The position numbers were made by a program, and so were the translations under genes. DNA of 64,000 nt, from the NCBI GenBank assembly GCA_009929265.1, contig SAAU01000001.1, positions 58,245-122,244 of the forward strand, read 5' to 3'. Every line of letters begins with the position of its first letter. The stretch's first letter is position 1. This DNA comes from Alphaproteobacteria bacterium (lineage in GTDB: Bacteria > Pseudomonadota > Alphaproteobacteria > CASFRQ01 > SAAU01). The notes beneath the pieces are model-generated. The model ran no database searches. It was not told where the DNA came from and saw only the letters and a program-made list of their open reading frames with translations. Positions 36,204-63,906 of this stretch are shown piece by piece.

Positions 36204-36346
36204 GCGTCTAAAAAGAGTAATAAAAATTCTTATTTTAAATACTAGTTGTATTTGTTTTTTGAATAGATTACACTAAAAACGCGTAAGCTTGTTGTTGTCA
36301 AGACGTCTTAATTTTTTAAGGCGTCTTTTTTTATTGGGAGTTTTAA

Positions 36347-36598
36347 ATGTTAAATGCCGTTTCGGATCGGATTTTCGTTAGGTTAAAAGAGGCGCCTAAA
36401 AAAAGTTCTCTTATTCTAACTGATTCTCTAAAAGGGATTTCAAATCAAGGAATTGTAGAAAGTGTAGGGCCTCTTGTTTATTCTGTTAAAAAAGGACAAG
36501 AGGTTCTTTTTCATTGCTTTGATGAGCTGCCAACCCCTGAAAAAGGAGTGGTTGTTATTCGAGAATCAAGCATTTTAGGAATTTATGAAAATGAGTAA
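36347..36598 (+). CDS. GroES-like 10-kDa co-chaperonin-fold protein (phage-encoded?)
   Basis: 83 aa. The N-terminus reads DRIFVRLKEAPKKSSLIL and the C-terminus reads VVIRESSILGIYE. These run parallel to GroES DRVIVKR...GGIVL and MSESDILAIVE. The 3' end overlaps the next ORF. Confidence 0.35.
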   Translation: MLNAVSDRIFVRLKEAPKKSSLILTDSLKGISNQGIVESVGPLVYSVKKGQEVLFHCFDELPTPEKGVVVIRESSILGIYENE

Positions 36599-38444
36599 AT
36601 TATCAAAAAATACATCACTTTCTTTTTGGCAAAAACGAGTTTTGGATGCCGAAAAGAAATATTATGATTACCACAATCTTGTCGATAAAACGCGAAAATT
36701 TTATAAGGATAGTGAATCAACGTTAGGAAAATCAGGACATTACAATATTTTTTGGTCCTCTGTTGAAACATTAAAGCCCTTTCTTTACTTTAAGTGTCCC
36801 GAAATTCATATCAAACGCTTAAATAAAGAGGCTTCTAAAGGCGAAAAATATGCTTGTAAAATTCTTGAAAAAGCTTTGAAATGGAGTGTTTCTCAAGCCG
36901 ATTTCGATAGTGTTTTGAAATATGCAAGAAATGATTTTCTTATCTCTGGCATGGGGCTTCTTTGGGAAAGATATCAAGGTGAATTTACAAAAATTGACGG
37001 CGAAGATATTAAAGTTTCCGAAAATGTCTTGTCGCAATATGTGGATCCGTCTTGCTTTATTGCCGATTGTGATAATGTTGGAATTTGGGAGGATGTCACT
37101 TGGGTGGCTCGACGCGTTTATATGTCTTTAAGGGAGATTGAAAAAAGTTTTGGAAAAGAAAGTTTGGAAAGCTTACAAATCAATCTAAAAGAAGATGAAA
37201 AAGACTTTAAATCCTATGTCGTTTACGAAGTTTGGGATAAAGTTACCAAAAAAGTCTATTGGTTTGAAAAGAATGGCACAAAATTCTTCAAGGTTTTAGA
37301 GGATCCTTTGCATTTGAAGGACTTTTTCCCGTGTCCAAAGCCCTTGTTTGCGACCCTAACGAATGATAGCATTATTCCTATTCCTGATTATATTTTGATT
37401 AAAGAACTCTTAGATGAGTTAAATGGGGTTAATTACCGAATGAGGATGATTACGCAGGCGTTTAAAGTCTCTGGAGCCTACGATGGATCTTTCCCCGATT
37501 TACAAAATATTTTGGAAAAAGAAAATGTATTGGTGGCCTTAAAAGACTTTATAAAACTTAAGGAAAACGGCGGAATTAAAGGGGTTATCGACTTTATTCC
37601 TTTGGAACAATATGTCGCAGCCCTATCAGAGCTTGCTGAACGCAGGAAGGATATTATGATGCAAATTTATAATATCACAGGAATTTCTGATATTATGAGA
37701 GGGGCTTCTAACCCACAAGAAACTGCCACTGCCGTTGTTCGAAAAACAAACTTTGGGAACCTAAGAAACCAAGACCGGCAAAATGATATGCAACGCTTTA
37801 TTGCGGATCTTTACCGTCTAAAGGCCGAGATGATTGCAGAGCTTTTTTCAAAGGATTTATTGCTTTCATTTCTTTCTAAAGAAGAACGACAAGATGAGGA
37901 GGCCTCAAAAGAAGCTCTTCGTATTTTACGGGAAGAAAAAATCCGCCAAATGAGCTTTCTAATTGGAACAGATGGCTTGTTTAACCAGGAAGAAGAGCTT
38001 AAAAAGACATCAGATGTGCTTTCTTCGTTAAATGGAATCGTTCAAAATGCGCTTCAAAATGTATCTGTGCAGCCTCTCTTGTTGCTTTTTTATAAGGAAA
38101 TGGTGGATGTGGTTGCGCAATACTTGCCCAAAGCAAGATCCCTTGAGAGTGTGATTGAATCGACGTTTGATAAGATTTCAAAAGAGCTTTCCTCAAAAGA
38201 AAATCCAGGGCCTAATCTTGGATTTTTACTTGAGCAAGAAAAACTTAAAAACACCTTTATGATTGAAAAAGAAAAGCTTGAAATTAAAAGAAAAGAGCTT
38301 CTCTTAAAGGAAAATGAGTTTAAATCAAAGCGAGATCTCACTCAAAAAGAAATGGCCTTGCAAGCACACTTTAAAACAGAAGAGTTAAAAGAAGATAAGA
38401 AGGTTGATAGCAATATTTCAACAGGGTTTGTGAAAGATTTTTAA
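36585..38444 (+). CDS. putative phage portal protein with C-terminal coiled-coil
   Basis: 619 aa. It sits immediately after the terminase and has a long C-terminal helical, Lys/Glu-rich region. I recognised no diagnostic motif, so the call rests on position and size. Confidence 0.3.
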   Translation: MKMSKLSKNTSLSFWQKRVLDAEKKYYDYHNLVDKTRKFYKDSESTLGKSGHYNIFWSSVETLKPFLYFKCPEIHIKRLNKEASKGEKYACKILEKALKWSVSQADFDSVLKYARNDFLISGMGLLWERYQGEFTKIDGEDIKVSENVLSQYVDPSCFIADCDNVGIWEDVTWVARRVYMSLREIEKSFGKESLESLQINLKEDEKDFKSYVVYEVWDKVTKKVYWFEKNGTKFFKVLEDPLHLKDFFPCPKPLFATLTNDSIIPIPDYILIKELLDELNGVNYRMRMITQAFKVSGAYDGSFPDLQNILEKENVLVALKDFIKLKENGGIKGVIDFIPLEQYVAALSELAERRKDIMMQIYNITGISDIMRGASNPQETATAVVRKTNFGNLRNQDRQNDMQRFIADLYRLKAEMIAELFSKDLLLSFLSKEERQDEEASKEALRILREEKIRQMSFLIGTDGLFNQEEELKKTSDVLSSLNGIVQNALQNVSVQPLLLLFYKEMVDVVAQYLPKARSLESVIESTFDKISKELSSKENPGPNLGFLLEQEKLKNTFMIEKEKLEIKRKELLLKENEFKSKRDLTQKEMALQAHFKTEELKEDKKVDSNISTGFVKDF

Positions 38445-38470
38445 CCCTTAATACAAGAAAAAGGTGAGGT

Positions 38471-38689
38471 ATGGTAAAAAGAAAAACGCCTCCAAAAGAT
38501 ATGAAAAAAATCTGGTTAGAGGTTTTTGATAAAATGGGTGGAATTGAAGGATTGCTTTCTTGGGCAAATGAAAATCAAAATGAATTTTATAAAATTTGCA
38601 CAAAGCTTTTTTCAATTGAAATAAAAGATAAAGATGAAAAGCCAAATCAGGTTCTTGTTAAATTTTTGGAAGATAAGAAGTTAAATTAA
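38471..38689 (+). CDS. hypothetical phage-module protein (72 aa)
   Basis: The ORF is co-directional and tightly packed within the phage-derived block. Confidence 0.2.
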   Translation: MVKRKTPPKDMKKIWLEVFDKMGGIEGLLSWANENQNEFYKICTKLFSIEIKDKDEKPNQVLVKFLEDKKLN

Positions 38690-38757
38690 GTTATTTTATT
38701 AACAAGCTATAAAAGAAGGTTAAATTTATTTTAGCCTTCTTTTTTTATGGAGGAATT

Positions 38758-38985
38758 ATGGCCTTTATTAACAGCCTATTTCAGACAGATTTTGAGTTGC
38801 CCAATGGTGAAAAAGTCTCTTCTTTAAAAGAAGCAGAAGAAAAAATGAACCAGCTTGGGATAACTTTATCAAGCAATTATTCAGAGGATTATTACAAGAA
38901 AAAACGTCTGAGTAATACGAAAAAAGAGAAGGAAGATCTCTTCAATCTCTTTATTTTAAACTACAAAAGGAGTATTTGGTTATGA
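38758..38985 (+). CDS. hypothetical phage-module protein (75 aa)
   Basis: The ORF is co-directional within the phage block. Confidence 0.2.
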   Translation: MAFINSLFQTDFELPNGEKVSSLKEAEEKMNQLGITLSSNYSEDYYKKKRLSNTKKEKEDLFNLFILNYKRSIWL

Positions 38986-39084
38986 CAACTAAAACAAGAG
39001 AAGAATTAGAAAAACTTTTTTCTTCTTTGCCGAAAACTATAAAAGAAGAAAAACATAAAGAGGGGGAGAAATCCTCAAGTCATT

Positions 39085-39519
39085 TTGGAGAAATTAGCTT
39101 CCCTTTATCAGGTTTCATTTCCATCAAAGCCCCCTCTTCAAAAAGGGGAAAATAAGGATAAACCCCTTCTTCAGAAGGCTTTATCTTTACTAAAATCCTT
39201 TGATGACGCGGTTGATGAAGCGGGGACAAAAAAGCACCCCTTCTTTAATGACGTTTCTTTAGAAATGGCTTCCCTTTTGAAAAATAAGCTCGTCTCCTCT
39301 TTGGAAGAGGCTTATGAAAAAGCCGTTTGGCTTAACCCAAAAATTAGAAATTCTTTAATCGAAGAAAAAACGCTTCAAACAATAAAGAAAAAAGTCGAAG
39401 AATCCGAAAAGGCCAAGGAAGCCTCCTTTTCGGTTAAGGGAAAAATGACTGGACAATCAGATCTTTCAAAGCTTTCAACGAGAGATCTTTTGGAATTTCA
39501 ATTCCGGAATTTAGACTAA
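39085..39519 (+). CDS. hypothetical helical phage-module protein (possible scaffold)
   Basis: 144 aa, alpha-helical and Lys/Glu-rich. An overlapping ORF at 38983-39156 in another frame may mean a frameshifted single gene. Confidence 0.2.
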   Translation: MEKLASLYQVSFPSKPPLQKGENKDKPLLQKALSLLKSFDDAVDEAGTKKHPFFNDVSLEMASLLKNKLVSSLEEAYEKAVWLNPKIRNSLIEEKTLQTIKKKVEESEKAKEASFSVKGKMTGQSDLSKLSTRDLLEFQFRNLD

Positions 39520-39546
39520 ATTTTAACTTAAAAAAAGGAAAACAAA

Positions 39547-39795
39547 ATGAGTAATTCAAATTATAATGATATTTTTACGACAACATTAGAAAGCAGAACA
39601 GGAAAATTGGCTGATAATGTTTCCGATAGCAACGCTCTTCTTTCTAGATTGAGAGAAAAGAAGAATATGGAGAATATCCAGAAACTACCCTTCCAGAAGA
39701 TGGCACTTGGTCCAATTATGTTTCAACAGGTTCTTCTGGAAGTGGGACTGTTTTGGCGTTGCGCTTTAAAAAAAATAATCGAGAAACACGTATGA
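39547..39795 (+). CDS. hypothetical phage-module protein (82 aa)
   Basis: The ORF is co-directional within the phage block. Confidence 0.2.
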   Translation: MSNSNYNDIFTTTLESRTGKLADNVSDSNALLSRLREKKNMENIQKLPFQKMALGPIMFQQVLLEVGLFWRCALKKIIEKHV

Positions 39796-39840
39796 AAAAC
39801 ATTGCGTTAAACTACTTTATTAAAGTAAAGGAGGAAGAAA

Positions 39841-40191
39841 ATGTCGCATAAAATTACCCCTGATGGGATTTCTATTACGCAAGGAGATTCTCTATATCTT
39901 CCTATTACTTTTAATGGGATGGATATTACGAATGCCACCTTAAATATGCAGGTGAGCTCTCAGGATTTGAAGACCCTTTTCATTGATAAGAAAGTCTCAA
40001 CACATATCGATGCTGCAAACGGGAAAACGGCTCTTAACTTAATGCCGTCAGATATAAATATTCCCGTTGGCGACTATGTGACAGATATGGAACTTTGCCT
40101 TTTAGATGGTCAAATCTTGACCTTTTACCCTGAAAGAACAGAAAAACAAGCCTTTTTTAGAGTCCTTGCCCAAGTGACAAAGGAGGAATAA
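39841..40191 (+). CDS. hypothetical phage structural protein (beta-rich, 116 aa)
   Basis: AGGAGG-like RBS (AAGGAGGAAGAAA) sits before the ATG. Predicted beta-strand-rich composition. Confidence 0.25.
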   Translation: MSHKITPDGISITQGDSLYLPITFNGMDITNATLNMQVSSQDLKTLFIDKKVSTHIDAANGKTALNLMPSDINIPVGDYVTDMELCLLDGQILTFYPERTEKQAFFRVLAQVTKEE

Positions 40192-41112
40192 ATGTCTGAA
40201 ATGAATTTATTTTTTGATGAAACAACGGGATTAAGCTTGGACATCAAAGAAGAAGCCTTAGACGTCTCAATAAATGAGGCAGAATTAACTGTATATCCAG
40301 AAGGCCTTAGCTTTATTCATAATGGAGAAGATGAAATAAAGGCCTTTGTTGAAAAGGTTTCAAAACCCGAGCTCAATACTTTTGTTTTAGAAGAAAAAAA
40401 GCCTGAATTAACAGCGTTTACTCAAGAAAAATTAACTGCGTTAGGCACTCAATATCAAACCTATAACACTCAATTAAATCAGCAAATAGATGAGAATAAG
40501 TCCGAAATGGAAGCCCTTTATAGCGCAACAAATACGCTAAAAGAAGAGGCCGCTTTACAAAAAGAGAAAGCCTTTCTTTGGGCGACAAAAATGGATGGAG
40601 AGGTTGAGGAAGGCCAAGGGTATAGCTCAAAATACTATGCATCGCTTTCCGATGAAAAAGAAGACAAGTCAAACAAAATTGCCCTTTTTCATGAAACGCC
40701 AGATGATACGCATTATCCTTCCGAAAAGCTGGTTTATGACGCTTTAGCCAATAAAATAAATTTGGAGGCGTCAAATCTATCTGATTTAGGTAAGAAAAAT
40801 TTGTCAGAATGGTCTCTTCCTGGGGACAGTTTTATAAATGTGACGCCAATTGCCTCCGGAGGAACTTATACAGCACCAAAAAATGGCTATTTTTCTTTTT
40901 TAGCAACAGCTCTTGATTCAACGGCCAGTATGATTTGCTTTAATGATGAGAGGCGGTTTTATCAATCGGTTTTTTATTGCAATGGATCGTCCCTTTTCCT
41001 CGGGCTAACAATTCCAATTCGGCAAGGTCAAACCATAACCTTTAGTTTTAAGAGTATCGAAAATCTGAATGTTTCATTCATCTATACAAAGGGAGAAGAG
41101 CTATGTTTATAG
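40192..41112 (+). CDS. hypothetical phage structural protein (306 aa; capsid or receptor-binding candidate)
   Basis: An acidic N-terminal half is followed by a beta-rich C-terminal region. It is translationally coupled to the upstream ORF (stop-start TAAATG). Confidence 0.25.
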   Translation: MSEMNLFFDETTGLSLDIKEEALDVSINEAELTVYPEGLSFIHNGEDEIKAFVEKVSKPELNTFVLEEKKPELTAFTQEKLTALGTQYQTYNTQLNQQIDENKSEMEALYSATNTLKEEAALQKEKAFLWATKMDGEVEEGQGYSSKYYASLSDEKEDKSNKIALFHETPDDTHYPSEKLVYDALANKINLEASNLSDLGKKNLSEWSLPGDSFINVTPIASGGTYTAPKNGYFSFLATALDSTASMICFNDERRFYQSVFYCNGSSLFLGLTIPIRQGQTITFSFKSIENLNVSFIYTKGEELCL

Positions 41113-42586: not shown

Positions 42587-42779
42587 AGAAAAAAATGCTG
42601 TTTTAATAAGAGAAACCCTAAAGATATTTTTTTATCTTAATGTTTTTTAATAACTCTTTGAATTCATTTTCAAAAAAATGTTACACTTTTTTTAAAAAGA
42701 TGCCTTTTTTAAGTTGATTATTTCGAAAAAATATTTATCCTTCTTGTTATTGTATCTTAAAACTTTCAAAGGAGGCATT

Positions 42780-43259
42780 ATGACCGATGAAGCTGCGTTA
42801 GAACAAACAAGAAAGGCCATTCAAAAGTGGAAAAAGAAAAGAGGTTCCCTTATTATGGCTTTGCATGAAATTCAAGGAATTTATGGCTATGTTCCTTGGG
42901 ATCATGCAAAAGTTGTAGCCGAAGAAATGGGGGTGGCTTTGGCCCGTATTTACGAAGTTTTAACCTTTTATAATTTCTTTAAGCTTGAATCTCCGGGAAA
43001 ATATATCATTTCTGTTTGTGATGGAACAGCGTGTCATATTAAAGGGGGCGCTTCGGTTATTGATGCTTTTGCAAAACATTTAAATATCAATCCAGGGGAA
43101 ACAACGCCTGACCGCCTTTTTCACATGCAAATTGTGCGGTGTTTAGGCTGTTGTGGATTGGCCCCTGTTGTGGTTGTAAATGGGAAAACATATGGAAAGG
43201 TCTCTCCTGCAGACGTTCCAAGTATTATTGATGAATGGAAAAAGAAGGAGGCCCTCTAA
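42780..43259 (+). CDS. hydC: [FeFe]-hydrogenase NuoE-like subunit (thioredoxin-like [2Fe-2S]; HydC/HndA-type)
   Basis: The NuoE family Cys pattern reads CDGTACHIKG...CLGCCGLAPV. The ATG at 42780 follows AAAGGAGG. The TAA stop overlaps the next ATG as TAATG. Confidence 0.8.
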   Translation: MTDEAALEQTRKAIQKWKKKRGSLIMALHEIQGIYGYVPWDHAKVVAEEMGVALARIYEVLTFYNFFKLESPGKYIISVCDGTACHIKGGASVIDAFAKHLNINPGETTPDRLFHMQIVRCLGCCGLAPVVVVNGKTYGKVSPADVPSIIDEWKKKEAL

Positions 43260-45070
43260 TGGATGAACTTACTCCAGAAATGAAAGAAAAGTTAAAGAAA
43301 CTCTACGCCACACAACGAGAAAACCTTGTTAAGATGAAGGAAGAGTTTTTGGTAAAAAAAGACTCCTACATTGCCTCTATTTACACCTGTAATAGCACAG
43401 GATGTCACTCTGGCGGGGCAGAAAATGTAATTGATGCCTTTAAGGAATCTTTGGAAATTTACGGTCTTCAAGATAAAGTGCGGATGGTGTCAACGGGATG
43501 TATGGGGTTGTGTGCACACGGACCTTTGGCGCGTGTTGAAATTAAAGGGCAAAAGCCTTTTCTTTATAAAGCCGTTGATGGCATGCTTGCTAGATTGATT
43601 GTAGCCGAGCATCTTCTTCCTGCTTTGAAAGCTTTAAAAGAGGGGAAAGCTGAAAACTTTGAAGTTAATGCTTTCTTAAAACAAAGAGAGCTTTCATTAG
43701 ATTTACCTTTCTTTACAAAACAAAAGAAAGTTGTCTTGAAAAATTTAGGGCACTCTGATCCAGAAGATTTTGGCGAATACCTAGCAACGGGTGGGTATCA
43801 AGCCTTTATTAAAGCTCTTGATACCATGACTCCAAAAGAAGTGCGCGATGTTATCCGTGAAAGCGGCCTTCGTGGACGTGGGGGTGGGGGATTTCCTACC
43901 GCCAAAAAGTGGGATTTACTTGCTGCTGCAACAGGAGATGAGAAGTTTGTCATCTGTAATGGCGATGAAGGGGATCCTGGCGCCTATATGGATGCGTGTA
44001 TCTTAGGGGGCGGCGCACATAGCGTTTTAGAAGGCATGATGATTGAGGCCTATGCCACAGGGGCAACACATGGTTGGTTCTATGTTCGGGCGGAATATCC
44101 TTTGGCTATTGAACGGGTTGAACAAGCCTTAAAACAAGCCAAAAAATATGGCCTTTTAGGAAAAAATATTTTAGGAACAGATTTCAGCTTTATGGCCGAG
44201 CTTCGTTATGGCGCAGGAGCTTTTGTCTGCGGTGAAGAAACAGCTTTAATGGAATCTTTGGAAGGTAAACGAGGCACCCCTCATCCACGTCCACCATACC
44301 CTACAGAAAAAGGACTTTTCGGGAAACCTTCGGCTATCAACAATGTTGAAACTTTGGCCAATGTCCCTGTTATTATTAGGGAAGGGGCAAAATTCTTTAA
44401 CTCTGTTGGAACAGAAACCAGTAAAGGAACCAAGGTTTTTGCCTTAACGGGGAAAGTTAAACACAGTGGATTGGTTGAAGTTCCTATGGGGATGAGCGTC
44501 TCTGAGATTGTTAATGATATTGGAGGGGGCACAAGCTCTGGAAAACCGTTTAAGGCGGTTCAAACAGGGGGCCCTTCTGGAGGGGTTATTCCTGCCAATA
44601 AGCTTGATATGCCTATTTGCTATGAAGAGCTTAAGAAAATCGGCTCTATGATGGGATCTGGCGGAATGATTGTCATGGATCAAGATGACAGTATGGTTGA
44701 AATTGCCAAATTCTATTTATCCTTTACGGTTGATGAATCTTGCGGAAAGTGTGCGCCTTGTCGAATTGGCGGCTATCAAATGCTTGAGCTAATGAAGAAA
44801 ATTGCAAGAGGAGACGGGAAAGAAGATGATATTCAAGAGCTGATTGAAATCGGAAGTGTGATGAAGAAAGCTTCTCTTTGCGCTTTAGGTCAAACAGCAC
44901 CAAACCCTGTTTTATCGACTTTAAGATTTTTTAGAGAGGAATATGAAGCTCTCCTTAAAAAAGATGACGATGAAGAAGAGGGCTGTCAAGCTGCTCTTCC
45001 CAAAAAAACAGATAAAGAAGAAAGCAAAGAAAAGCCAGAATGTGCAACGTGTTCCGGATGTGGGAGATAG
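43259..45070 (+). CDS. hydB: [FeFe]-hydrogenase NuoF-like NAD(P)H/FMN subunit with N-terminal [2Fe-2S] domain (HydB/HndC-type)
   Basis: An N-terminal 4-Cys thioredoxin-like module is present. The FMN/NADH site reads GRGGGGFPTAKKW. The NuoF 4Fe-4S motif reads ESCGKCAPCRIGG and the C-terminal end reads CATCSGCGR. GAAGGAGG sits 7 nt before the ATG at 43259. Confidence 0.85.
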   Translation: MDELTPEMKEKLKKLYATQRENLVKMKEEFLVKKDSYIASIYTCNSTGCHSGGAENVIDAFKESLEIYGLQDKVRMVSTGCMGLCAHGPLARVEIKGQKPFLYKAVDGMLARLIVAEHLLPALKALKEGKAENFEVNAFLKQRELSLDLPFFTKQKKVVLKNLGHSDPEDFGEYLATGGYQAFIKALDTMTPKEVRDVIRESGLRGRGGGGFPTAKKWDLLAAATGDEKFVICNGDEGDPGAYMDACILGGGAHSVLEGMMIEAYATGATHGWFYVRAEYPLAIERVEQALKQAKKYGLLGKNILGTDFSFMAELRYGAGAFVCGEETALMESLEGKRGTPHPRPPYPTEKGLFGKPSAINNVETLANVPVIIREGAKFFNSVGTETSKGTKVFALTGKVKHSGLVEVPMGMSVSEIVNDIGGGTSSGKPFKAVQTGGPSGGVIPANKLDMPICYEELKKIGSMMGSGGMIVMDQDDSMVEIAKFYLSFTVDESCGKCAPCRIGGYQMLELMKKIARGDGKEDDIQELIEIGSVMKKASLCALGQTAPNPVLSTLRFFREEYEALLKKDDDEEEGCQAALPKKTDKEESKEKPECATCSGCGR

Positions 45071-45075
45071 GAAAT

Positions 45076-46836
45076 ATGACAAAAATGATTAAGCTAAAAA
45101 TTGACAATCTCGACGTTGAAGTCCCTGAAGGAACCTCCATTCTTGATGCGGCTAAAAAGGTCCAAGTTGAAATTCCAACTTTATGTTATCACCCCGATTT
45201 GGAGCCAACAGCAGCTTGTGGGCTTTGTATTGTAAAGGCCAATGGACGTATGCTTCGTTCTTGTTGCACCCCGGTAATGGAGGGAATGGAAGTCATTACG
45301 CGGGATCCTGAAATTGTAAATGAACGCAAAACTGTGCTGAAGCTTATTTTAAGTCGGCATCCCAATGAATGCTTGACCTGTCTTAAGAATGAAACATGTG
45401 AGTTGCGTCAAAAGGCGGCCGAATTTGGTTTCCGGCAAGATAATTTCAAGAAAATCTCTCTTTCGCACGAAGATGCACCTTTGGATTGTTCGACGCGCTC
45501 TATTGTCTTGGATCCAAGAAAGTGTATTTTATGTGGCCGATGTGTTCAAGTTTGCCAAAATGTTCAAAATGTTTGGGCTTTGTCCTTCTTGAATAGAGGG
45601 TTAAAAACAAGAATTGCTGTCGCAGGGAACTTAACTTTGGATGAATCTCCTTGTATTAAATGTGGTCAATGTGTGGCTCACTGTCCAACAGGGGCTTTGA
45701 CAGAGTATGATGATACAGGAATTGTCTGGCGGTCTTTAATGAATAAAGAAAAATATTGTGTGGCTCAAATTGCTCCAGCTGTTCGGGTTGCCATTGGGGA
45801 AGCCTTTGGGAAAGATCCAGGGGAAATCTCAACGAAAAAGCTTTATTCTGCCCTTCGTCGATTAGGCTTTGACGCCGTCTTCGACACCAACTTTGGCGCC
45901 GATGTGACAATTATGGAGGAAGGCTCCGAGTTCGTGGAACGTTTTGCTCATGGAAAAGGCTCTTTACCTTTGATTACGTCTTGCTGTCCAGCTTGGGTAG
46001 ATTATATGCAGAAATATTATCCTGATATGATTGAGCATTTTTCAACTTGCAAATCTCCGCATGAAATTGTGGGCGCTTTGACAAAGACCTATTATGCCGA
46101 AAAGAAAGGCCTAGATCCAAAGGATATTATGATGGTTTCTATTATGCCTTGCACGGCCAAAAAATATGAAATCAGACGCAATGAATCTATGTATGCAAGT
46201 GGATGTCAAGATGTTGACGTGTCTTTAACAACCAGAGAACTTGCCCGAATGTTAAAGCAAGCTGGAATCGTCTTTGATGAATTAAAAGATGAGGAAGCAG
46301 ATAGTCCTTTAGGGGAATACTCTGGCGCGGGAACAATCTTTGGATTTTCAGGCGGCGTGATGGAAGCAGCTTTAAGAACGGCCTATCGCTTGGTTGAGGG
46401 AAAAGAGCTTGATGACGTAGACATCACCCCATTAAGAGGCGTGGACGAAGGCATTAAAACAATGGAAATGCCTTTGGGCGGCAAAACTTTGAAAGTGGCC
46501 GTTGCTCAAGGAACTGGAAATGTTGGAAAGCTCCTTGACGAAGTGCGTGATGCCTTAAATAGAGGGGAAGAATCTCCTTACCAATTTATTGAAGTTATGG
46601 CTTGTCCTGGCGGATGTATTGGGGGCGGTGGACAACCCACTGGTGTCACGAATAAAGTTAGAAAAGAACGAACAAAAGGGCTTATTATGGACGATAAGAA
46701 GTCTTCTATTCGGAAATCTCACCTTAACCCTGACGTTCAAAAACTCTATGAGGAGTATTTAGATAAACCTTTAAGTGAAAAGGCGCATCACCTTCTTCAT
46801 ACGACATATAACGCGGTTCCTGTTTATAAAAAGTAA
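45076..46836 (+). CDS. hydA: [FeFe]-hydrogenase catalytic subunit
   Basis: The N-terminal plant-type [2Fe-2S] reads C..C.C...C. A His-ligated [4Fe-4S] reads HPNECLTCLKNETC. Two ferredoxin-type CxxCxxCxxxCP motifs follow. All three H-cluster signatures are present: L1 TSCCPAW, L2 MPCTAKKYE and L3 MACPGGCIGGGGQP. The ATG at 45076 follows GGAG. Confidence 0.9.
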   Translation: MTKMIKLKIDNLDVEVPEGTSILDAAKKVQVEIPTLCYHPDLEPTAACGLCIVKANGRMLRSCCTPVMEGMEVITRDPEIVNERKTVLKLILSRHPNECLTCLKNETCELRQKAAEFGFRQDNFKKISLSHEDAPLDCSTRSIVLDPRKCILCGRCVQVCQNVQNVWALSFLNRGLKTRIAVAGNLTLDESPCIKCGQCVAHCPTGALTEYDDTGIVWRSLMNKEKYCVAQIAPAVRVAIGEAFGKDPGEISTKKLYSALRRLGFDAVFDTNFGADVTIMEEGSEFVERFAHGKGSLPLITSCCPAWVDYMQKYYPDMIEHFSTCKSPHEIVGALTKTYYAEKKGLDPKDIMMVSIMPCTAKKYEIRRNESMYASGCQDVDVSLTTRELARMLKQAGIVFDELKDEEADSPLGEYSGAGTIFGFSGGVMEAALRTAYRLVEGKELDDVDITPLRGVDEGIKTMEMPLGGKTLKVAVAQGTGNVGKLLDEVRDALNRGEESPYQFIEVMACPGGCIGGGGQPTGVTNKVRKERTKGLIMDDKKSSIRKSHLNPDVQKLYEEYLDKPLSEKAHHLLHTTYNAVPVYKK

Positions 46837-46883: not shown

Positions 46884-46890
46884 AATTTAA
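46852..46890. repeat. approximately 40-bp direct repeat, copy 1 (contains the terminator hairpin)
   Basis: Copy 1 reads aagcccttcattgatttgaagggctttttcaatttaag. It is nearly identical to copy 2 at 48641-48680 (aggcccttcattgatttgaagggcctttttaatttaag). Confidence 0.7.
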
Positions 46891-46954
46891 GAAAATACAT
46901 TGACAGGAAAACTAATAATTGATAAAAATCTATGAAATACACGAAAGGTTTTTT

Positions 46955-47719
46955 ATGAGATATTTTTTCTTAATTCTTTTTTTTCCTTCTCTTTTAATGG
47001 CAGCGGAGGATTCTGCGTGCGTTTTTCAACATATTGACAAATGTTATTCTTGTGATGAGTTAAAAGCAATTGGACTTTCTGTTTCTAAAGAAGAAAAAGA
47101 TTCAGATGCTTTAAAAAAATGCAAAAATAGAAATGTTTATATAAGTTGGATGATTCCCCATGTTTTCTCCGTTTTAAAAAAGTGTCCAAAAGAAATGCCT
47201 TTGTTAAATGGCATGGGCCTTTGTTTTTCCTGCGCTGAAAAAGAACCTGTTTATCAAAGTTTTAAAAAGGATTTCCCTTTTTCTGGAGAATATACCTGCC
47301 CAAATAGGGTTTTGATAAGAGAAAATTCTTTCTTTGCTTACTCATATATAAGCCAATGCCCAAAAGACAAACCTTTAGTGGGATATCACGGAGATTGCTA
47401 TAGCTGCGATACGCCTCTTTCCATTAACATTAGTGAAAATGAAGTTTTATGTCGCAGATTTTGCGATGGAAAGCGCTTTTTTAATGGAGGATACTGTATG
47501 TCTTGCTCCTTTGTTCCCCTTAACGAATATCCGAATAAAGATTTTTGTATTTCTTGCGGGGGATATTGGGATAAAACGCATTGCAGGGAAAGAAGGGAAG
47601 GGGATGACCTTCAATTCTGCCACAAAAATAGCGATTGCGCAAAAGATGAGATTTGTTTTTATAATAGATGCAAAGCCTTTACAGAAGAAGAAAAAAAATC
47701 CCTTTATGGAAAGTTTTAA
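46955..47719 (+). CDS. secreted Cys-rich repeat protein, paralogue A
   Basis: The signal peptide reads MRYFFLILFFPSLLMAA. At least 24 Cys lie in repeated CPK(D/E)xPL...CxSC units. A conserved C-terminal module runs CRRFCDGKRFFNGGYC...CISCGGYWDKTHC...CHKNSDCAKDEICFYNRCKAFTEEEKKSLYGKF. Confidence 0.5.
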   Translation: MRYFFLILFFPSLLMAAEDSACVFQHIDKCYSCDELKAIGLSVSKEEKDSDALKKCKNRNVYISWMIPHVFSVLKKCPKEMPLLNGMGLCFSCAEKEPVYQSFKKDFPFSGEYTCPNRVLIRENSFFAYSYISQCPKDKPLVGYHGDCYSCDTPLSINISENEVLCRRFCDGKRFFNGGYCMSCSFVPLNEYPNKDFCISCGGYWDKTHCRERREGDDLQFCHKNSDCAKDEICFYNRCKAFTEEEKKSLYGKF

Positions 47720-49851: not shown

Positions 49852-50911
49852 AAAGTCCTTTGCCTTCTTTTTAGCTTGCCTTTTAGCCCTTTCTTCTTGC
49901 TCGGTAAAGGAGGAAAAGGATTTTCAAAGGGTTTCGTTTCGCTCTTTAACGGGATGGCAAGAGGAAGATTTTAAAAACCTTTATCCAACCCTAGCTTTAG
50001 CCTGCAAGAGCCCAACTGTTTTTTACGATAAATTCTGCAAAGGTCTTCTTAAGACCTCTCCCGCGTCATTAAAAGCCTATTTAGAGCATAACCTAATTGC
50101 TTATCGCGTTGGGAAGAAGGATGAGTTTGGAAAGTTTACGGGCTATTATGAACCTATTTTTGAAGGCTCCTTTGAAAAAACGCCTGAGTTTTCTGTGCCT
50201 TTAAGAGGAATTCCCAAAAATCTTGTGAAAGTGAACCTAAAAGATTTTGGAAAAGAAGGTTATTTGATTGGAAAAGTCAAAGACGGACATCTTATCCCTT
50301 ATGACGCAAGAGAGGAAATTGAGAACGAAAAGGAAGAAAATGTCCTGCTTTATATGAAGAATTTACCAGATAAATTTATTCTTCAGATTCAAGGATCAGG
50401 CCAGATTCAAACAAATAAAGGGCTTGTCAGAGTTGGATTTTCTGCCTCCAATGGGTTAGAATTCAAAGGAATTGGCACTATTATGCAAAAAGAAGGGGTT
50501 TTAGAAAAAGGAAAAGCCTCTATGCCAGAGATTAAAAAATGGCTGAAAAAACATCCGATAAAGGCTGAAAAGCTGATGAATCAAAATCCGCGCTATATTT
50601 TCTTTAGATTTCTTTCAAATGAAGGGGGCCCTTTGGGAACGCAAGGTATTCCTTTAACAGCAAAACGCTCTTTGGCGGTAGATACACGCTATATTCCGCT
50701 CGGCTCCCTTTTATGGTTGGAAACAAAAGATGGGTTTCATGGAAAATTTAACCATCTGATGATTGCGCAAGATACAGGATCTGCTATCAAAGGAAAAATA
50801 CGCGGAGATGTCTTTTGGGGAACGGGAAAAGAAGCCTTCGCCCAAGCCGGAAGAATGAATAATAAAGGACAATATTTTATTCTTCTTCCAAGAGGGGTTC
50901 GCCTAAAATGA
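49844..50911 (+). CDS. mltA: membrane-bound lytic murein transglycosylase A (lipoprotein)
   Basis: The lipoprotein signal reads MHKKSFAFFLACLLALSSC. The body resembles the MltA/3D-domain family. The ATG at 49844 is preferred over the upstream in-frame extension. Confidence 0.65.
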   Translation: MHKKSFAFFLACLLALSSCSVKEEKDFQRVSFRSLTGWQEEDFKNLYPTLALACKSPTVFYDKFCKGLLKTSPASLKAYLEHNLIAYRVGKKDEFGKFTGYYEPIFEGSFEKTPEFSVPLRGIPKNLVKVNLKDFGKEGYLIGKVKDGHLIPYDAREEIENEKEENVLLYMKNLPDKFILQIQGSGQIQTNKGLVRVGFSASNGLEFKGIGTIMQKEGVLEKGKASMPEIKKWLKKHPIKAEKLMNQNPRYIFFRFLSNEGGPLGTQGIPLTAKRSLAVDTRYIPLGSLLWLETKDGFHGKFNHLMIAQDTGSAIKGKIRGDVFWGTGKEAFAQAGRMNNKGQYFILLPRGVRLK

Positions 50912-51372
50912 TAGAAGATTTTGACTTGTGGGATAAGATTAAGAAATCAATACAACCTATTGATAAAAAAAGTTATATTAAAGAAGATGACTTCCAAAAC
51001 CCCCTTCAATCTTTTGCAAAAAAAATAGCTATCCATCGACATTTTCCAGAGGTTTTATCTTTTAAGCCCGAACGAAAAGAGCTTTCTTTTTCACTAGATC
51101 TTCATGGTAAAACATTGGATGAAGCCTTCTCTTTACTTTCCCATTTTATTGTGGAACATCGAAGACGGGGAACAGAGTTTGTCACAATTATCACTGGAAA
51201 AGGACTAAAGAATGAAGGACTTTTGAAAAAAAATGTTCCTTTATGGCTTGAAAATGAGAAAATAAAAAAGCATATTGTCTCTACGCGAAAAATATTGGAT
51301 TCAAGAGCACAATATGGCTCTTTTTTGGTTTATTTGAAACCGAAAGGTAAGAAAAAAGAATGTATGTATTAG
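50908..51372 (+). CDS. Smr-domain protein
   Basis: The Smr core reads [37 protein letters not shown]. The start overlaps the mltA stop (ATGA). Confidence 0.7.
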
Positions 51373-52706
51373 GGATAGAATCAAGCTGTGACGAAACTGC
51401 AGCAGCCATTGTTTCGGAAAAAAAGGACCTCCTTTCGCATGTCGTTTGGTCCCAGCAGGAACATTTGGCTTTTGGCGGCGTTGTTCCAGAGATTGCCGCA
51501 CGGGCTCATCTAGATAGAATCGATGAGATTGTTCAAGAAACTTTGGATAAGGCGCATCTTACTTTTGATGACTTATCCGCCATTTCTGTCGCCGCAGGCC
51601 CCGGTTTAATTGGGGGCGTCATTGTGGGGGTTATGACAGCAAAAAGCATTTGTGCTGCCAAAAATATCCCTTTTGTGGCCGTTAATCACTTAGAAGGACA
51701 TGCTTTAACGGCAAGGCTAACGAGTGACGTTGAATTTCCATACCTTCTCTTATTGGTTTCAGGAGGGCATTGTCAGCTTCTTGTCGTAGAGGACGTTGGA
51801 AAATACAAAATGCTCGGCACGACGATTGACGATTCGTCAGGAGAAGCGTTTGACAAAGTCTCAAAAATGCTTGGTTTGGGCTATCCTGGAGGACCTAAAA
51901 TCGAAAAAGAGGCCCAAAAAGGCAATCCCAAGCGATTCCGTTTTCCTTCTCCTATGAAGGGCAGGGAAGGGTTTGATTTTTCTTTTTCAGGCCTAAAAAC
52001 AGCCGTTCGTCACCAAATTGAGCTTTTAGGAGACGAAATGACAGAACAAGATATTGCCGATATTTCGGCCTCTTTTCAAAAAGCGGTTTTGGGAAGTTTA
52101 CTTGACAGAGTAAAAAAAGCCATAACGCTTTATAAAGAAAAATATAATGGAAAACACTTGGTTGTTGCAGGTGGGGTGGCCTCAAATCTTGCTTTAAGGG
52201 AAAGTTTAACCTTACTTGCAAAAGAAAACAATTTACAATTTAATGTAGCTCCTGTAAAATTATGCACGGATAACGGGGCTATGATTGCGTGGGCTGGTTT
52301 GGAACGTTTCCGTAAAGGCTATACCAATTCGCTTGACTTCAAAGCACGCCCGAGATGGCCTTTAGAATCACTGAAAAAAGGAGAATACCTTATGAAAATT
52401 ATTAAAGACTCTGAATTTAAAAATACTGTTTTGGAAAATTCAAAACCTGTTGTTGTTGACTTTTTCGCAGAATGGTGCGGACCTTGTCGTCAAATGCTAC
52501 CTATTTTGGAAGAAATTTCAAAGGAAATGGGCGATAAAATTGATATTGTGAAGATGAATATTGATGAAGCTCCAGAAACACCAAATACTTATCAAGTTCA
52601 AAATATTCCAACAATGATTCTTATTAAAGATGGAAAAGAAATTGATAGAAAAGTCGGATCTATGCCAAAACATGTTTTTGAAGAATGGGTTAATTCTCAT
52701 CTTTAG
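51360..52706 (+). CDS. tsaD: tRNA N6-threonylcarbamoyladenosine synthase TsaD fused in frame to thioredoxin
   Basis: Residues 1 to about 340 are Kae1/TsaD ([14 protein letters not shown] and the HLEGH family core, ending RPRWPLESL). No stop follows. The frame continues through AAAAAAGGAGAATACCTT-ATG into a complete thioredoxin with the WCGPC active site. Confidence 0.8.
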
Positions 52707-52794
52707 GATTTAAAAAGGGCAGGGAAATCCCCTCTCTTTTTAAGCTTTAGACATAAAAAAGCCCCCCAAAAATAGGAGGGCTTTATTTTTTAAT

Positions 52795-53208
52795 CTATTT
52801 TCGAATAAACATAGCGTAAAAAGGCTTACTTGCAAAAAGGACAAACAAAATTGCATGGTATTCCCAATGAATAGCAGCTAAGCTTGGATAAATCTTTACA
52901 AGTAAAAACGAAAAGAATGTCACAGAAATAAGGGTTAGAACCTGACATTCTGGCGTCCAAACCTTTAGAGTATTTTGTATTTTCTCAAAAACACTTTCGC
53001 CTTTTATTGAAAGAATTTTCATCCATATCGGTGAGGCGGCAAGAAGCGCTGTAATAAGGTAAACAGCCCAATTGAGGCTTAAAATCTCTGGATAAAATAT
53101 GGCAATTAAAAATCCCATAAAAACATAAGCCATTTCAATAAAGCTCATATTCAAAATGGTCATTTCACTTCTTAATTTATCTTGAAGAAAAGTATATGTT
53201 GTCATCAT
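52795..53208 (-). CDS. hypothetical small integral membrane protein
   Basis: About 138 aa with 4 predicted TM helices. I trimmed the start to the ATG at 53208, which has AAAGGGGGA 4 nt upstream. The ORF-track N-terminus (to 53385) runs through the tRNA gene and is an artefact. Confidence 0.4.
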   Translation of the reverse strand: MMTTYTFLQDKLRSEMTILNMSFIEMAYVFMGFLIAIFYPEILSLNWAVYLITALLAASPIWMKILSIKGESVFEKIQNTLKVWTPECQVLTLISVTFFSFLLVKIYPSLAAIHWEYHAILFVLFASKPFYAMFIRK

Positions 53209-53307
53209 AAATCCCCCTTTTATATGTGATTGACACATGAAGTTTACAGATAAAAAACTTATAAAATCAAGCTTTTTATCAAAAAAAATAAAAATAAAGG
53301 GAATACT

Positions 53308-53383
53308 TGGCGACCCTAGCGGGAATCGAACCCGCGTTGTTGCCGTGAGAGGGCAATGTCCTAGGCCTCTAGACGATAGGGTC
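53308..53383 (-). tRNA. tRNA-Glu (anticodon CUC), CCA encoded
   Basis: I folded it by hand. The acceptor stem is GACCCTA/TAGGGTC. The D-arm is typical of Glu (TCGTCTAGAGGCCTAGGACA). The anticodon stem TTGCC/GGCAA carries the loop CT-CTC-AC. The T-arm is GCGGG TTCGATT CCCGC, ending in the discriminator and CCA. Confidence 0.8.
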
Positions 53384-53520
53384 ATCTAAAACTTTTCCCT
53401 GTATAACAGCTATAACCTAAAAAAACAAGTTTTATTTTCATAAAAATTAAACTTTCTTTTTTGCTAAAAATATGTTTTTATCTTTTTTATAAAGATAAGC
53501 TAAAAATCAAAGGAAAAATC

Positions 53521-55743: not shown

Positions 55744-55830
55744 AGGATGTGATGAGTCGAACATCGAGGCGCCAACCACCCCCGTCGATGTGAACTCTTG
55801 GGGTATCTGCTTGTATCCCCGGCGTATTTA
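55744..55830 (-). pseudogene. relic fragment of 23S rRNA domain V (peptidyl-transferase region), about 87 nt
   Basis: The plus-strand text reads aggatgtgatgagtcgaacatcgaggcgccaaccacccccgtcgatgtgaactcttggggtatc...atccccgg. It is the reverse complement of the universally conserved 23S segment GGGGATAACAGGCTGAT...CCCAAGAGTTCACATCGACGG...GTTTGGCACCTCGATGTCGGCTCATCACATCCT. Flanking sequence is AT-rich and not rRNA-like. Confidence 0.55.
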
Positions 55831-56731
55831 TCTCCATTTCTCTTATTTTTTCTTTTTTTTCCTTAAAAAAGATATTTCTTCATCTTTTTTAAGCCTTTTA
55901 GAAAGGTTATAAAGAAACTCAAAAGGAAATATGAGTTATAAACTGACAGCTTATACACCTCTTTTAGAAAGCTTTTTGATATAAAATTTCAAGCTTAATT
56001 TTCCTTTATTCTTTAAATAATGCCCTCTTTTTTGAAAAAATAACACTTTAACTTCATTAAGTTAATATACTATTATCAAATAGATATAATAGTTTATTAA
56101 AGTAATATATAAAGATAAAAGAAAAATGCCTCTTTGCCTCAAGCGGCTTTTAAATTCGAAAAAATTTTTAAGTCACGTTGCCTTTTTACTTCTTTTCTTT
56201 TTAAGATGACATAAGGGAAAAATAAAGCAAAGCGAAATTTCTCTTAAAGCCTAATCTTTGAAAAACCAAAAAAGGATAGGAATTTAAAAAGCTATAAGAG
56301 AGGCATTAAAATCCGATTTCTTAGATATAAAAAAGCTATAGACATCCTTAATTTTGCTCATTATGGAAGCTCTTTCCGATTTTGTGCTAGAAATCAGAGG
56401 CAACCCTTTTTATAAAAGAAGGGAAACTTCATACCAGAAAGATAGAACAAGAGGAAAAGTGCCTTAGAAGGAAGTGAAATTCATTTCATTTTGGGGATGT
56501 TATTGGAGGGAAGCCATCTGTTTTGATTATTTGAAGGATTTTCTTTCTTTTTTAAGTAAACGCTTTCAAATTTCATAACACAAAGGAAAACCAATCGTTG
56601 ATACGTAAGCTTTTGAAAACAGAAACTTCCTAAATAAGGTAAAAAACTTAGATATAAAGAGTCGTTCCTAAGAAATATCGCCATAAAAAAAGAGGAGGTT
56701 TCCCTCCCCTTTTAAGCTTTAACAAAGAATT

Positions 56732-60831: not shown

Positions 60832-62088
60832 TTAGCCTAAGAAAGACAGGAACACCCCTGCGGCAACAGCCGATCCAATCGCTCCTGCCACATTGGGCGC
60901 CATAGCGTGCATTAAAAGGAAATTTCCCTCGTCTTCTTTAAGAGCTAAGTTTTGCGAAACTCGAGCCGCCATAGGAACAGCCGAAACCCCTGCGGATCCA
61001 ATTAAAGGATTGATTTTATCTTTCAAAAACAAGTTCATAAATTTGGCCATTAAAACGCCCGATGCGGTCCCTAAAACAAAGGCAAACGCCCCTAAAAATA
61101 AAATGAGCAAAGTTTGGGGTTGTAAAAACTCTGTCGCCGTAAGTTTCACCCCAATAGAAAGCCCTAAAAGTAAGGTTGTGATATTCATTAGTTCGTTTTG
61201 AACGCTCTTTGATAAACGATCTGTCACGCCACATTCTTTAAGGATATTTCCAAACATAAGCATCCCAATTAAAGGGGCCGCAGAAGGCACAAAAAACACG
61301 CAAAGCAAAAAACACACAAAGGGGAAAAGAAGAAGCTCTTTTTTCGAAACCGCTCTTTGATTTTTCATCCGAATAAGGCGTTCTTTTTTGGTGGTCAATA
61401 AACGCATAACAGGCGGCTGTAAAACAGGCACCAAAGCCATATAGGAGTAAGCCGCAACGGAAATAGCCCCCAACAAATGAGGCGCCAGCTTTCCAGATAA
61501 AAAGATAGAAGTTGGCCCATCTGCCCCTCCGATAATGGAGATAGACGCTGCCTCTTTAAGCGAAAAGAGGGATCCGCCCGCCCCGCCTAAAGCCATAGCC
61601 CCTAGAAAGGTTCCAAAAATGGCAAATTGCGCCGCAGCTCCCAAAAGGATAAGCTTTGGATTAGAAAGCATCGGGGTAAAATCGGTCATCGCCCCAACGC
61701 CCATAAAAATCAACAAGGGGAAAAGGCCTGTTTTGATTCCAAATTCGTAAATAAAGTATAAAAAGCCCCCTTCCCTTGCAATTTCAAGAGTGGGGATATT
61801 TGCCAAAATTCCACCAAAAGCAATCGGCACCAATAAAAGCGGCTCAAATTTTTTACAAATGGCCAAATACATCAGCCCAAGCATTAAAACAATCATAAAC
61901 AGGCTTTGCATTCCCGCGCTATCTTTTAGAAAATGATACACCCCTGTTTGCGTTAAAAAGGAAGTTATCAATTCTTTTTGGGAAACAAAAAATGGCAAAC
62001 AAATCAAGAGGAAAAGAAAGGCAAAAAAAGCAACTTTTAGTCCCTTTATTTTTTTTAAATTTTCTTGAATAGAAAAGATATTTTTCAC
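60832..62088 (-). CDS. oadB: Na+-translocating decarboxylase beta subunit (OadB/GcdB/MmdB family)
   Basis: 418 aa with about 9 or more TM helices. Family-typical segments include [21 protein letters not shown] and [15 protein letters not shown]. Confidence 0.75.
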
Positions 62089-62112
62089 AATTTTCTCCCT
62101 TAATAAAACACT

Positions 62113-63906
62113 TTATCTTATTATTGCAAGTATTTGATTTTCTTCGACTTGTTCGCCTACTTCAGCTTTAATTTCTTGAACAATTCCTTTGTGTTTTGAC
62201 TTAATCAAAACTTCCATTTTCATCACTTCAATCACAAATAAGGGCGTCTCTAAGTCGACTTCTTCCCCTTTTGAAACAAGAACTTTTGATACCGTTCCAT
62301 TTAAGGGCGAGGCCACTTTGTTTTCTCTTTCGTTTTTTAAGGAAGATTCTACCTTATCCGATTTTTCCTTTTCTTTAGAAGACGCCACCTCTTTTTTTAG
62401 AAAATCAAACGCATATTCTTTCCCATTAACAAAGGCTTTATTTCCCGAAAGCTCCACGTCAAAAGGCTTTTTACCAATTAAAATTGTTTGTTTTTTCAAC
62501 GGTTTTTCCACCCAACGAATGGCCACATTTTTCTTTCCTTGAAGGAAGGCTATCCCCTTTTCCCCGCAAGCAGCAACAATAAAGATATTCTCATCTGTCA
62601 CAGGGATTTTATTGTTTTTCAAGTGCTCTATCGCTGCGTTAATACCTTTTTGAGTATCTTCCTCGTTAATATCCAAAGGCAACCTATCCGTCTTTGGCAG
62701 ATTCATTTGCTCTGAGGCAATTTCGACCACTTTTTCATCGGGCGGCATAGGGGTTTTTCCAAAATAGCCCAAAACCATTTTTCCATAGCCTTCTGCAATC
62801 TTTTTCCACGGGCCAAACATTACATTATTAAAAGCTTGTTGAAAATAAAACTGCGACACAGGCGTCACAGAGGTGCCAAAGCCCCCTTTCCTGACAACTT
62901 CTTCCATTGATTTAATCACTTGAGGAAACTTATCCATCAGGCCATTATCTCTTAGCATTTGGGTGTTTGCTGTCAAGGCTCCGCCTGGCATAGGGCTCCA
63001 AGGAATTTGTGGTTCCACTTTCAAGGCTTCTTTAGGAAGAAAATAGTCCTTCATCGCCTCTTTAAATCTGTCTTCTAACGTCATAATGGCTTGAACATCA
63101 ACATCTAGCTCATAGGCAGATCCCCTCAAAACATGCCAAAAGGTTGCAATATCCGGAGAACATGTTCCTCCAGAAACAGGCGCTAAAGAAAGATCCACCG
63201 TCTGAACCCCCGCTTCAATGGCGGAAATATAACATGCCACAGAAACTCCCGCCGTTTCGTGAGAGTGAAATTGCAATGGAAAATCATCCCCTAATAGGTT
63301 TTTGGCCCGCCGCACTGTTTCATAGACAACAGAGGGAACAGAGGTGCCTGAAGCATCCTTAAAACAAAGAGAATCAAAGGGAATCCCAGAATCCAAAAAG
63401 CGTTTCAAACAGGCCTCGTAAAAATCGGCATTATGAGCGCCTTCACATCCTGGTGGCAAAGACATCATCGTCAAAGTCAACTGGTGGGAAAGCCCTGCGT
63501 CTTTAATGCATTGTCCACTGTAAAGAAGGTTATTGGGATCATTTAACGCGTCAAAATTTCGAATAACGTCCACCCCATGCTTTTTGAAAAGCTTTGCATG
63601 GAGGTTAATCACGTCTCTGGGTTGCGAATCAAGACCGACAACGTTAATTCCCCGCGCCAAAGTTTGAAGTTTTACTTGAGGACCCACCGTTTTTCGAAAC
63701 GCATCCATGACATCAAACGCATTCTCTCCTGTGTATAAAAAAGGCGACTGAAACAAAGCCCCGCCCCCTGATTCAAAGTAGGAAATCCCCGCTTTTGTTG
63801 CCTCTTTCACAATAGGTAAATAGTCCTTTGAAAGCACTCTTGCCCCAAAGGCAGATTGGAACCCGTCTCGAAAGGCCGTGCACATAAAGTTTATTTTCTT
63901 TGTCAT
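62113..63906 (-). CDS. oadA: oxaloacetate decarboxylase alpha subunit-like (5S carboxyltransferase TIM barrel plus biotinyl domain)
   Basis: The N-terminal carboxyltransferase reads TAFRDGFQS...LQFHSHETAGVSVA (metal-binding HxH). The C-terminal biotinyl-lysine motif reads EVMKME within a lipoyl-like domain. Confidence 0.75.
   Translation of the reverse strand: MTKKINFMCTAFRDGFQSAFGARVLSKDYLPIVKEATKAGISYFESGGGALFQSPFLYTGENAFDVMDAFRKTVGPQVKLQTLARGINVVGLDSQPRDVINLHAKLFKKHGVDVIRNFDALNDPNNLLYSGQCIKDAGLSHQLTLTMMSLPPGCEGAHNADFYEACLKRFLDSGIPFDSLCFKDASGTSVPSVVYETVRRAKNLLGDDFPLQFHSHETAGVSVACYISAIEAGVQTVDLSLAPVSGGTCSPDIATFWHVLRGSAYELDVDVQAIMTLEDRFKEAMKDYFLPKEALKVEPQIPWSPMPGGALTANTQMLRDNGLMDKFPQVIKSMEEVVRKGGFGTSVTPVSQFYFQQAFNNVMFGPWKKIAEGYGKMVLGYFGKTPMPPDEKVVEIASEQMNLPKTDRLPLDINEEDTQKGINAAIEHLKNNKIPVTDENIFIVAACGEKGIAFLQGKKNVAIRWVEKPLKKQTILIGKKPFDVELSGNKAFVNGKEYAFDFLKKEVASSKEKEKSDKVESSLKNERENKVASPLNGTVSKVLVSKGEEVDLETPLFVIEVMKMEVLIKSKHKGIVQEIKAEVGEQVEENQILAIIR

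Follow-up and report, generated by a model that had tools for sequence, protein, structure and literature searches.

The locus described here lies in a window of 64,000 nucleotides (i.e., the whole stretch of alphaproteobacterial DNA that was analysed, taken from contig SAAU01000001.1), whose ORF listing gives a single plus-strand ORF of 448 amino acids at 51360..52706. The encoded protein consists of TsaD (residues 1 to ~339), a six-residue bridge, and a thioredoxin (Trx; residues 345–448). The underlying elements are as follows:

51360..52385, plus strand: tsaD coding part (codons 1–342), with the same length as the 342-aa TsaD of conspecific strains and 99% identical to it over 342 aa
52379..52383, plus strand: Shine-Dalgarno sequence AGGAG of trx, inside the final codons of tsaD and unchanged across the seven sequences
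52386..52388, plus strand: codon 343, TAC (Tyr), replacing the ancestral tsaD TAA stop codon (class *343Y; alignments A1 and A2)
52389..52391, plus strand: CTT, formerly the intergenic 3-nt spacer and now codon 344 (Leu), whose length keeps tsaD and trx in one frame
52392..52706, plus strand: complete thioredoxin gene, 104 aa plus a TAG stop codon (52704–52706); the same 104-aa protein is a separate gene call in three other assemblies
52473..52487, plus strand: WCGPC thioredoxin active-site motif (fusion residues 372–376)

A first-pass annotation of this DNA had claimed that the ORF runs in frame from tsaD into a full thioredoxin with a WCGPC motif, and comparisons with Pfam, NCBIfam and the PDB agree with that description. 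Residues 24–311 match PF00814 (TsaD; E-value of 6.5e-91) and residues 347–445 match PF00085 (Thioredoxin; E-value of 2.5e-29). With 417.8 bits (cutoff 296.1; residues 3–317), the N-terminal part passes the TsaD equivalog TIGR03723 over its full-length, 314-position model and is thereby a member of the TsaD family. The thioredoxin equivalog TIGR01068 (cutoff 96.8) is likewise exceeded, with 121.5 bits within the fusion and 125.8 bits for the thioredoxin on its own, and both the CGPC active site and the cis-Pro loop of a thioredoxin are present, with P417 at the cis-Pro position being nearly invariant (alignment A3). The metal ligands of the Kae1/TsaD active site are a His-x3-His pair plus an Asp in the C-terminal domain (H111, H115 and D300 in E. 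coli, from the 4YDU work). All three are kept in the TsaD part of the fusion, in which H110 and H114 (in NHLEGH) and D304 (in CTDNGAM) are aligned to H111, H115 and D300 in chain 3zet_B of Salmonella TsaD.

Homology to TsaD stops at residue 338–339, corresponding to residue 334–335 of the 3zet and 4ydu chains (337–343 aa). Since this is the usual end of the family, the TsaD part is complete, and the PDB alignment thus confirms the earlier statement that the TsaD/Kae1 homology ends at the normal C-terminus. Homology to thioredoxin sets in at residues 345–348. Instead of the free C-terminus at position ~335–345 that is normal for TsaD, the chain runs on for 109 residues beyond the TsaD homology, which touches the architecture of the protein and not the family membership of its TsaD domain. 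An AlphaFold2 model of the fusion, based on an alignment that combined TsaD and Trx sequences, reached a mean pLDDT of 64 and a pTM of 0.41, and was confident in the thioredoxin domain only (residues 298–343 having a pLDDT below 50).

At the junction, the codons read ...CTG AAA AAA GGA GAA TAC CTT ATG AAA..., in which the trx ATG (52392–52394) has become codon 345 in frame with tsaD. This gives a TsaD-KKGEYL-Trx bridge, with ...SLKKGE-Y-L-M... as the linker context. The AGGAG sequence is separated from the trx ATG by an 8-nt spacer (52384–52391), so that thioredoxin has indeed retained its own ribosome-binding site and start codon, as had been noted at first pass. The missing stop codon of tsaD, also reported there, can now be placed more precisely at codon 343 (52386–52388), where conspecific strains carry TAA.

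These conspecific strains are represented by six assemblies, i.e., the MAG GCA_028706035.1 (L001) and five Logan/ENA contigs (L003–L007) that were retrieved through exact matches to the thioredoxin or its cluster mates. The MAG provided the best database match to the fusion (an alphaproteobacterial TsaD of 342 aa, 99% identical), and its DNA is 98.3–98.6% identical to the window over three long aligned blocks (~16.8 kb) with the same gene order. In L001, the 342-aa tsaD ends with GAA TAA, followed by CTT and then by the ATG of a separate 104-aa thioredoxin. The same GAA TAA CTT ATG is present in all six assemblies versus GAA TAC CTT ATG in the window (alignment A2), the differing base being 52388 (A in six of six, C in the window), and the k-mer pair for the two alleles at this position is GGAGAATACCTTATG vs. 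GGAGAATAACTTATG. Pairwise comparison reduced the six assemblies to four distinct haplotypes (L001 = L003, L004, L005 = L006, and L007), which are 95.4–99.8% identical to the window. Among these, the 618-nt ENA contig L004 shares the local haplotype of the window, as A vs. C at 52388 is its sole difference in 618 nt; the change thus postdates the divergence from the L004 sub-lineage. Two exact-pattern scans of JGI metagenomes with the junction sequence (N at variable sites) gave no matches.

Separate genes were also found in sister lineages whose TsaD is ~70% identical. There, the gene order secB-tim44-mltA-smr-tsaD-trx is conserved, and tsaD (with a TAA stop codon) and trx are separated by a spacer of 35–39 nt that harbours its own Shine-Dalgarno sequence. 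The spacer of the present species has a length of only 3 nt, with the trx Shine-Dalgarno sequence absorbed into the coding end of tsaD. The regions compared with 52386–52391 of the window were:

L088, 5021–5058: tsaD-trx spacer region of a sister lineage
L092, 5024–5065: tsaD-trx spacer region of a sister lineage

The first-pass annotation had proposed aligning relatives and looking for separate genes with a stop codon at this site, and that is the arrangement seen in the six assemblies and in the sister lineages. It had also named an old fusion, fixed throughout the clade, as the alternative that would overturn its reading. With separate genes and a stop codon in all conspecific assemblies and sister lineages, and with all 120 best homologues being TsaD-only proteins of 339–363 aa, such an ancient origin is excluded. 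The reverse polarity, in which TAC would be ancestral and TAA derived, was rejected as well, since it needs parallel stop gains in four haplotypes and contradicts the outgroups.

Because TAA is found in all conspecifics and the genes are separate in sister lineages, the fusion is, by parsimony, derived, single-step and private to the window sequence. The two components are separate, adjacent genes with an intervening stop codon in close relatives, which is the configuration expected of a gene fusion by stop-codon loss. In the proposed course of events, the species would first have contracted the tsaD-trx spacer from ~35–39 nt to 3 nt (CTT), leaving the frames aligned and no stop codon in between, after which an A-to-C change at 52388 would have converted the TAA of tsaD into TAC (Tyr) and yielded the 448-aa read-through ORF. 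With an in-frame spacer of 3 nt, one substitution is enough, as any sense mutation of the tsaD stop codon fuses both genes. Compaction of the spacer preceded the loss of the stop codon and made the fusion possible. Overall, we consider it fairly probable that the fusion arose only very recently, through a point mutation private to this strain (TAA to TAC, by A to C at 52388), and the earlier proposal of a recent stop-codon loss joining two adjacent genes is supported by the TAA in four haplotypes and by the single differing base in L004.

This reading has to be weighed against a base-call or consensus error (from sequencing, polishing or a strain-mixed consensus), in which case the organism would truly carry TAA at 52386–52388 and thus two genes. 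An artefact of this kind is a possibility that we deem less likely, although several observations speak for it. Every other assembly of the species has an A at 52388, and the closest contig, L004, is identical apart from this very base; as the remainder of its 618 nt matches the window, SNPs may have accumulated at a low density in this lineage since the split, which raises the weight of an error. In addition, the exact 448-aa protein is absent from a collection of 15 billion sequences, no partial fused ORF was found in a database of 5.8 billion clusters, and transversions are the minority class among the natural differences (A to C accounting for 7 of the 102 in the main block compared with L001). 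Odd-looking features that were chosen for their oddness are, moreover, enriched for errors.

Against an error stands the quality of the surrounding sequence. Approximately 17 kb could be compared with L001 without encountering frameshifting indels, the indels that do occur being confined to intergenic A/T runs or to in-frame pairs totalling 6 nt, and site 52388 itself is located outside any homopolymer. A frameshift or homopolymer artefact was rejected, given that the change is a substitution outside any homopolymer (context GAATA[A/C]CTT). Furthermore, at the 6,314 positions for which two or more other assemblies give data, the window carries 33 private SNPs (~5 per kb), so that one affecting a stop codon would not be out of scale. 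Two of the private SNPs are located at 51910 and 51977. Typical consensus error rates are far below this density. The private differences also bear the signature of real evolution, with 22 of the 33 being transitions and 18 of the 29 coding changes being synonymous (the remainder comprising 11 non-synonymous and 4 intergenic changes); within tsaD itself, five are synonymous and one is non-synonymous. These features point to a sound assembly of a strain that has diverged naturally, which is in line with the A-to-C change being a real, strain-private mutation.

A further search covered other proteins in which TsaD and thioredoxin might be joined. Among 393 retrieved proteins (best matches from a full-length query, a junction query and an exhaustive HMMER search), none combined both domains, and recurrence of the architecture in other genomes (i.e., the Rosetta-stone criterion) was accordingly not seen among these best matches. 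The best 150 matches to the junction-spanning HMMER query (residues 270–448) were mostly multi-thioredoxin (PDI-like) proteins, none of them with TsaD, in a listing that lower-ranked, distant TsaD-Trx fusions could escape. One candidate for a partial fusion, P0146 (a thioredoxin of 165 aa with an N-terminal extension), was rejected on finding that its extension is unrelated to TsaD. The mechanism (i.e., read-through fusion of operon neighbours after stop loss) is well known, and the TsaD-Trx pair is not. As in stop-loss gene fusions in general, same-strand operon neighbours that are separate in relatives have been joined and their spacer has turned into a linker; unlike those, the present case is at strain level, with one sequence vs. 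four haplotypes, is unfixed, and is known from assembled sequence alone. We know of no functional partnership between TsaD and thioredoxin.

Both domains nevertheless have counterparts in established fusions. Kae1 and Bud32 are fused in 25 and encoded by adjacent genes in 13 of 53 archaeal genomes (PMC4615747), and structures of such fusions have been solved (PDB entries 2vwb and 3en9). The archaeal Kae1-Bud32 proteins (PRPK/Tcs3-Tcs5) resemble the window ORF in having an N-terminal TsaD/Kae1 domain followed by a complete protein at the C-terminus, whereas the partner is the Bud32 kinase there and thioredoxin here, and whereas they are ancient and widespread instead of private to one strain. 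The ORF itself does not encode a bifunctional Kae1-Bud32 protein, as the NF007174 match (202.6 bits; cutoff 447) is confined to model positions 1–307 and the C-terminal domain is a thioredoxin. At the other end, the NTR-Trx fusions (M. leprae TR-Trx and the NTRC of plastids and cyanobacteria) are described in PMC4988983 (citing Wieles et al. 1995) as larger enzymes that have arisen from neighbouring genes and end in a complete thioredoxin as their C-terminal module. Here the likeness to the window ends at the N-terminal partner, which is thioredoxin's own reductase (i.e., its redox partner) in NTR-Trx and a tRNA-modification enzyme in the window. Identity with NTR-Trx was dismissed, since no Pyr_redox family (pyridine-nucleotide-disulfide oxidoreductase) is found among the Pfam matches and the N-terminal part is TsaD. 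Because C-terminal fusions to Kae1/TsaD occur and thioredoxin works as a C-terminal module elsewhere, a TsaD-Trx fusion would, by analogy, probably be tolerated.

Such precedents for fused, functionally linked neighbours also raise the question of whether the TAC allele, if real, has been selected and marks the birth of a new domain architecture, i.e., a functional bifunctional TsaD-thioredoxin. A tethered thioredoxin might, for example, keep the metal site or cysteines of TsaD reduced, or tie t6A synthesis to the redox state. Both domains being intact, with their catalytic motifs present, would suit this scenario, as would the adjacency of tsaD and trx, which is conserved in this lineage and in the sister lineages. 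However, the allele is private to one sequence, with four other haplotypes keeping the stop codon; no TsaD-Trx fusion occurs among the 393 retrieved proteins; the t6A review PMC4615747 mentions no link between TsaD and thioredoxin; and the linker counts only ~6 residues, as an accident of spacing. The adjacency does not extend to more distant relatives either, with no trx within 3 kb of tsaD in any of the 80 more distant alphaproteobacterial loci listed (at most 62% identity among the matches listed), so that it appears to be restricted to this lineage. What argues for a selected bifunctional enzyme is, in the end, the conserved gene adjacency, and we hold this scenario to be very improbable. 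Most likely, the fusion is a neutral or slightly deleterious transient polymorphism and not a selected bifunctional enzyme.

With respect to the predicted products, ribosomes starting at the tsaD ATG would make a TsaD-Trx fusion of ~49 kDa with a linker of ~6 residues, while de novo initiation at the unchanged AGGAG-N8-ATG would still give the free thioredoxin of 104 aa. A Shine-Dalgarno-like tetramer precedes 17 of the 31 ATG-start ORFs of the window, and the organism can be taken to use Shine-Dalgarno sequences. Folding of the trx initiation region (80 nt) gave –4.4 kcal/mol for the TAC allele vs. –2.6 kcal/mol for the TAA allele. Because the Shine-Dalgarno sequence and the ATG are intact and the initiation region is weakly structured, it is plausible that the locus yields both a fusion protein and, via internal initiation, free thioredoxin. 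The conspecific strains, with the trx Shine-Dalgarno sequence in the end of tsaD and the stop codon 3 nt before the trx ATG, have the classic geometry of translationally coupled pairs; any termination-reinitiation coupling at the old TAA would be lost in the window. With the trx Shine-Dalgarno sequence and ATG now inside the ORF, the locus also resembles genes in which internal in-frame starts give two isoforms, a likeness confined to sequence geometry.

The genes form part of a compact operon, with overlaps of 4 nt between mltA and smr and of 13 nt between smr (50908–51372) and the start of tsaD. Two putative transcription signals were noted around trx:

52232..52260, plus strand: best sigma-70-like match (TTTACA-17-TAAAAT, 10 of 12 positions), within tsaD towards its 3′ end, ~130 nt ahead of the trx ATG
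52758..52784, palindromic and assigned to neither strand: terminator-like hairpin, rich in G+C and flanked by T runs on either side, between the convergent trx and a minus-strand hypothetical gene

The former is a candidate internal promoter that might give extra trx transcripts, although the evidence is weak, with seven sigma-70-like matches in the region vs. 8.7 ± 2.7 in shuffled sequences and hence no excess. The latter is a terminator-like site that might close the operon.

If the TAC allele is real, the locus offers a small and clean natural example of a starting gene fusion, in which contraction of the spacer was followed by a point mutation of the stop codon, and in which a two-domain protein arises without loss of the ribosome-binding site of trx. 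If it is a base-call error, the feature is relevant to the curation of this assembly only. In the very improbable event of a selected fusion, with free thioredoxin still produced from the internal start, thiol-redox control and the t6A tRNA-modification machinery would be functionally connected, in a manner so far unrecognised, in this anaerobic alphaproteobacterial lineage, in which tsaD and trx were already adjacent when the sister lineages split off. The feature is ordinary in mechanism, constitutes no new system, has no bearing on an open question, and is not an established new protein. For annotation, it carries a warning, as automatic pipelines call a "TsaD" of 448 aa and lose the thioredoxin gene.

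Some neighbouring regions of the window deserve mention. The hypothetical gene convergent with trx (52795–53385, minus strand) was called as an ORF of 196 aa that crosses a tRNA-Glu(CTC) gene (53308–53383, minus strand; ARAGORN and Rfam). Its first ~59 residues are translated tRNA sequence and are spurious. Gene calls differ here, with 137 aa in the MAG annotation and 196 aa in one Logan assembly, and the gene holds a cluster of four window-private SNPs, all four of them non-synonymous.

Further upstream, the plus-strand region 42714–46836 encodes a NuoE-like 2Fe-2S protein (PF01257), a NuoF-like flavoprotein (PF01512 and PF10589) and an [FeFe]-hydrogenase whose large subunit includes a small-subunit domain (PF02906 and PF02256). 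The three genes are arranged as in trimeric hydrogenases of the bifurcating type, and the genome has 36% GC. Genes for a Na+-oxaloacetate decarboxylase are located at 60832–63906 (minus strand) and, together with the hydrogenase trio, suggest an anaerobic lifestyle. Just upstream of the hydrogenase genes, the region 34869–41112 (plus strand) encodes a phage terminase large subunit (PF04466, E-value of 2e-32), followed by a weak match to a P22-like portal protein and by ORFs without a Pfam match. This arrangement suggests a prophage remnant or a block akin to a gene transfer agent.

Finally, two regions were found to vary between the window and the MAG. Downstream of the hydrogenase gene, the MAG carries an extra segment of ~770 nt (L001 1902–3077 vs. 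window 46885–47192) with an additional gene of 258 aa that faintly matches phage lysozyme; at this place, the window has one ORF of 266 aa. The difference is a gene insertion, deletion or duplication that varies between strains. The intergenic region 55814–56574, downstream of an amidohydrolase gene, shows 14 small indels in ~500 nt relative to the MAG, followed by non-aligning segments, whereas the flanking genes are 98–99% identical between both; by this comparison, it is a hypervariable non-coding region.
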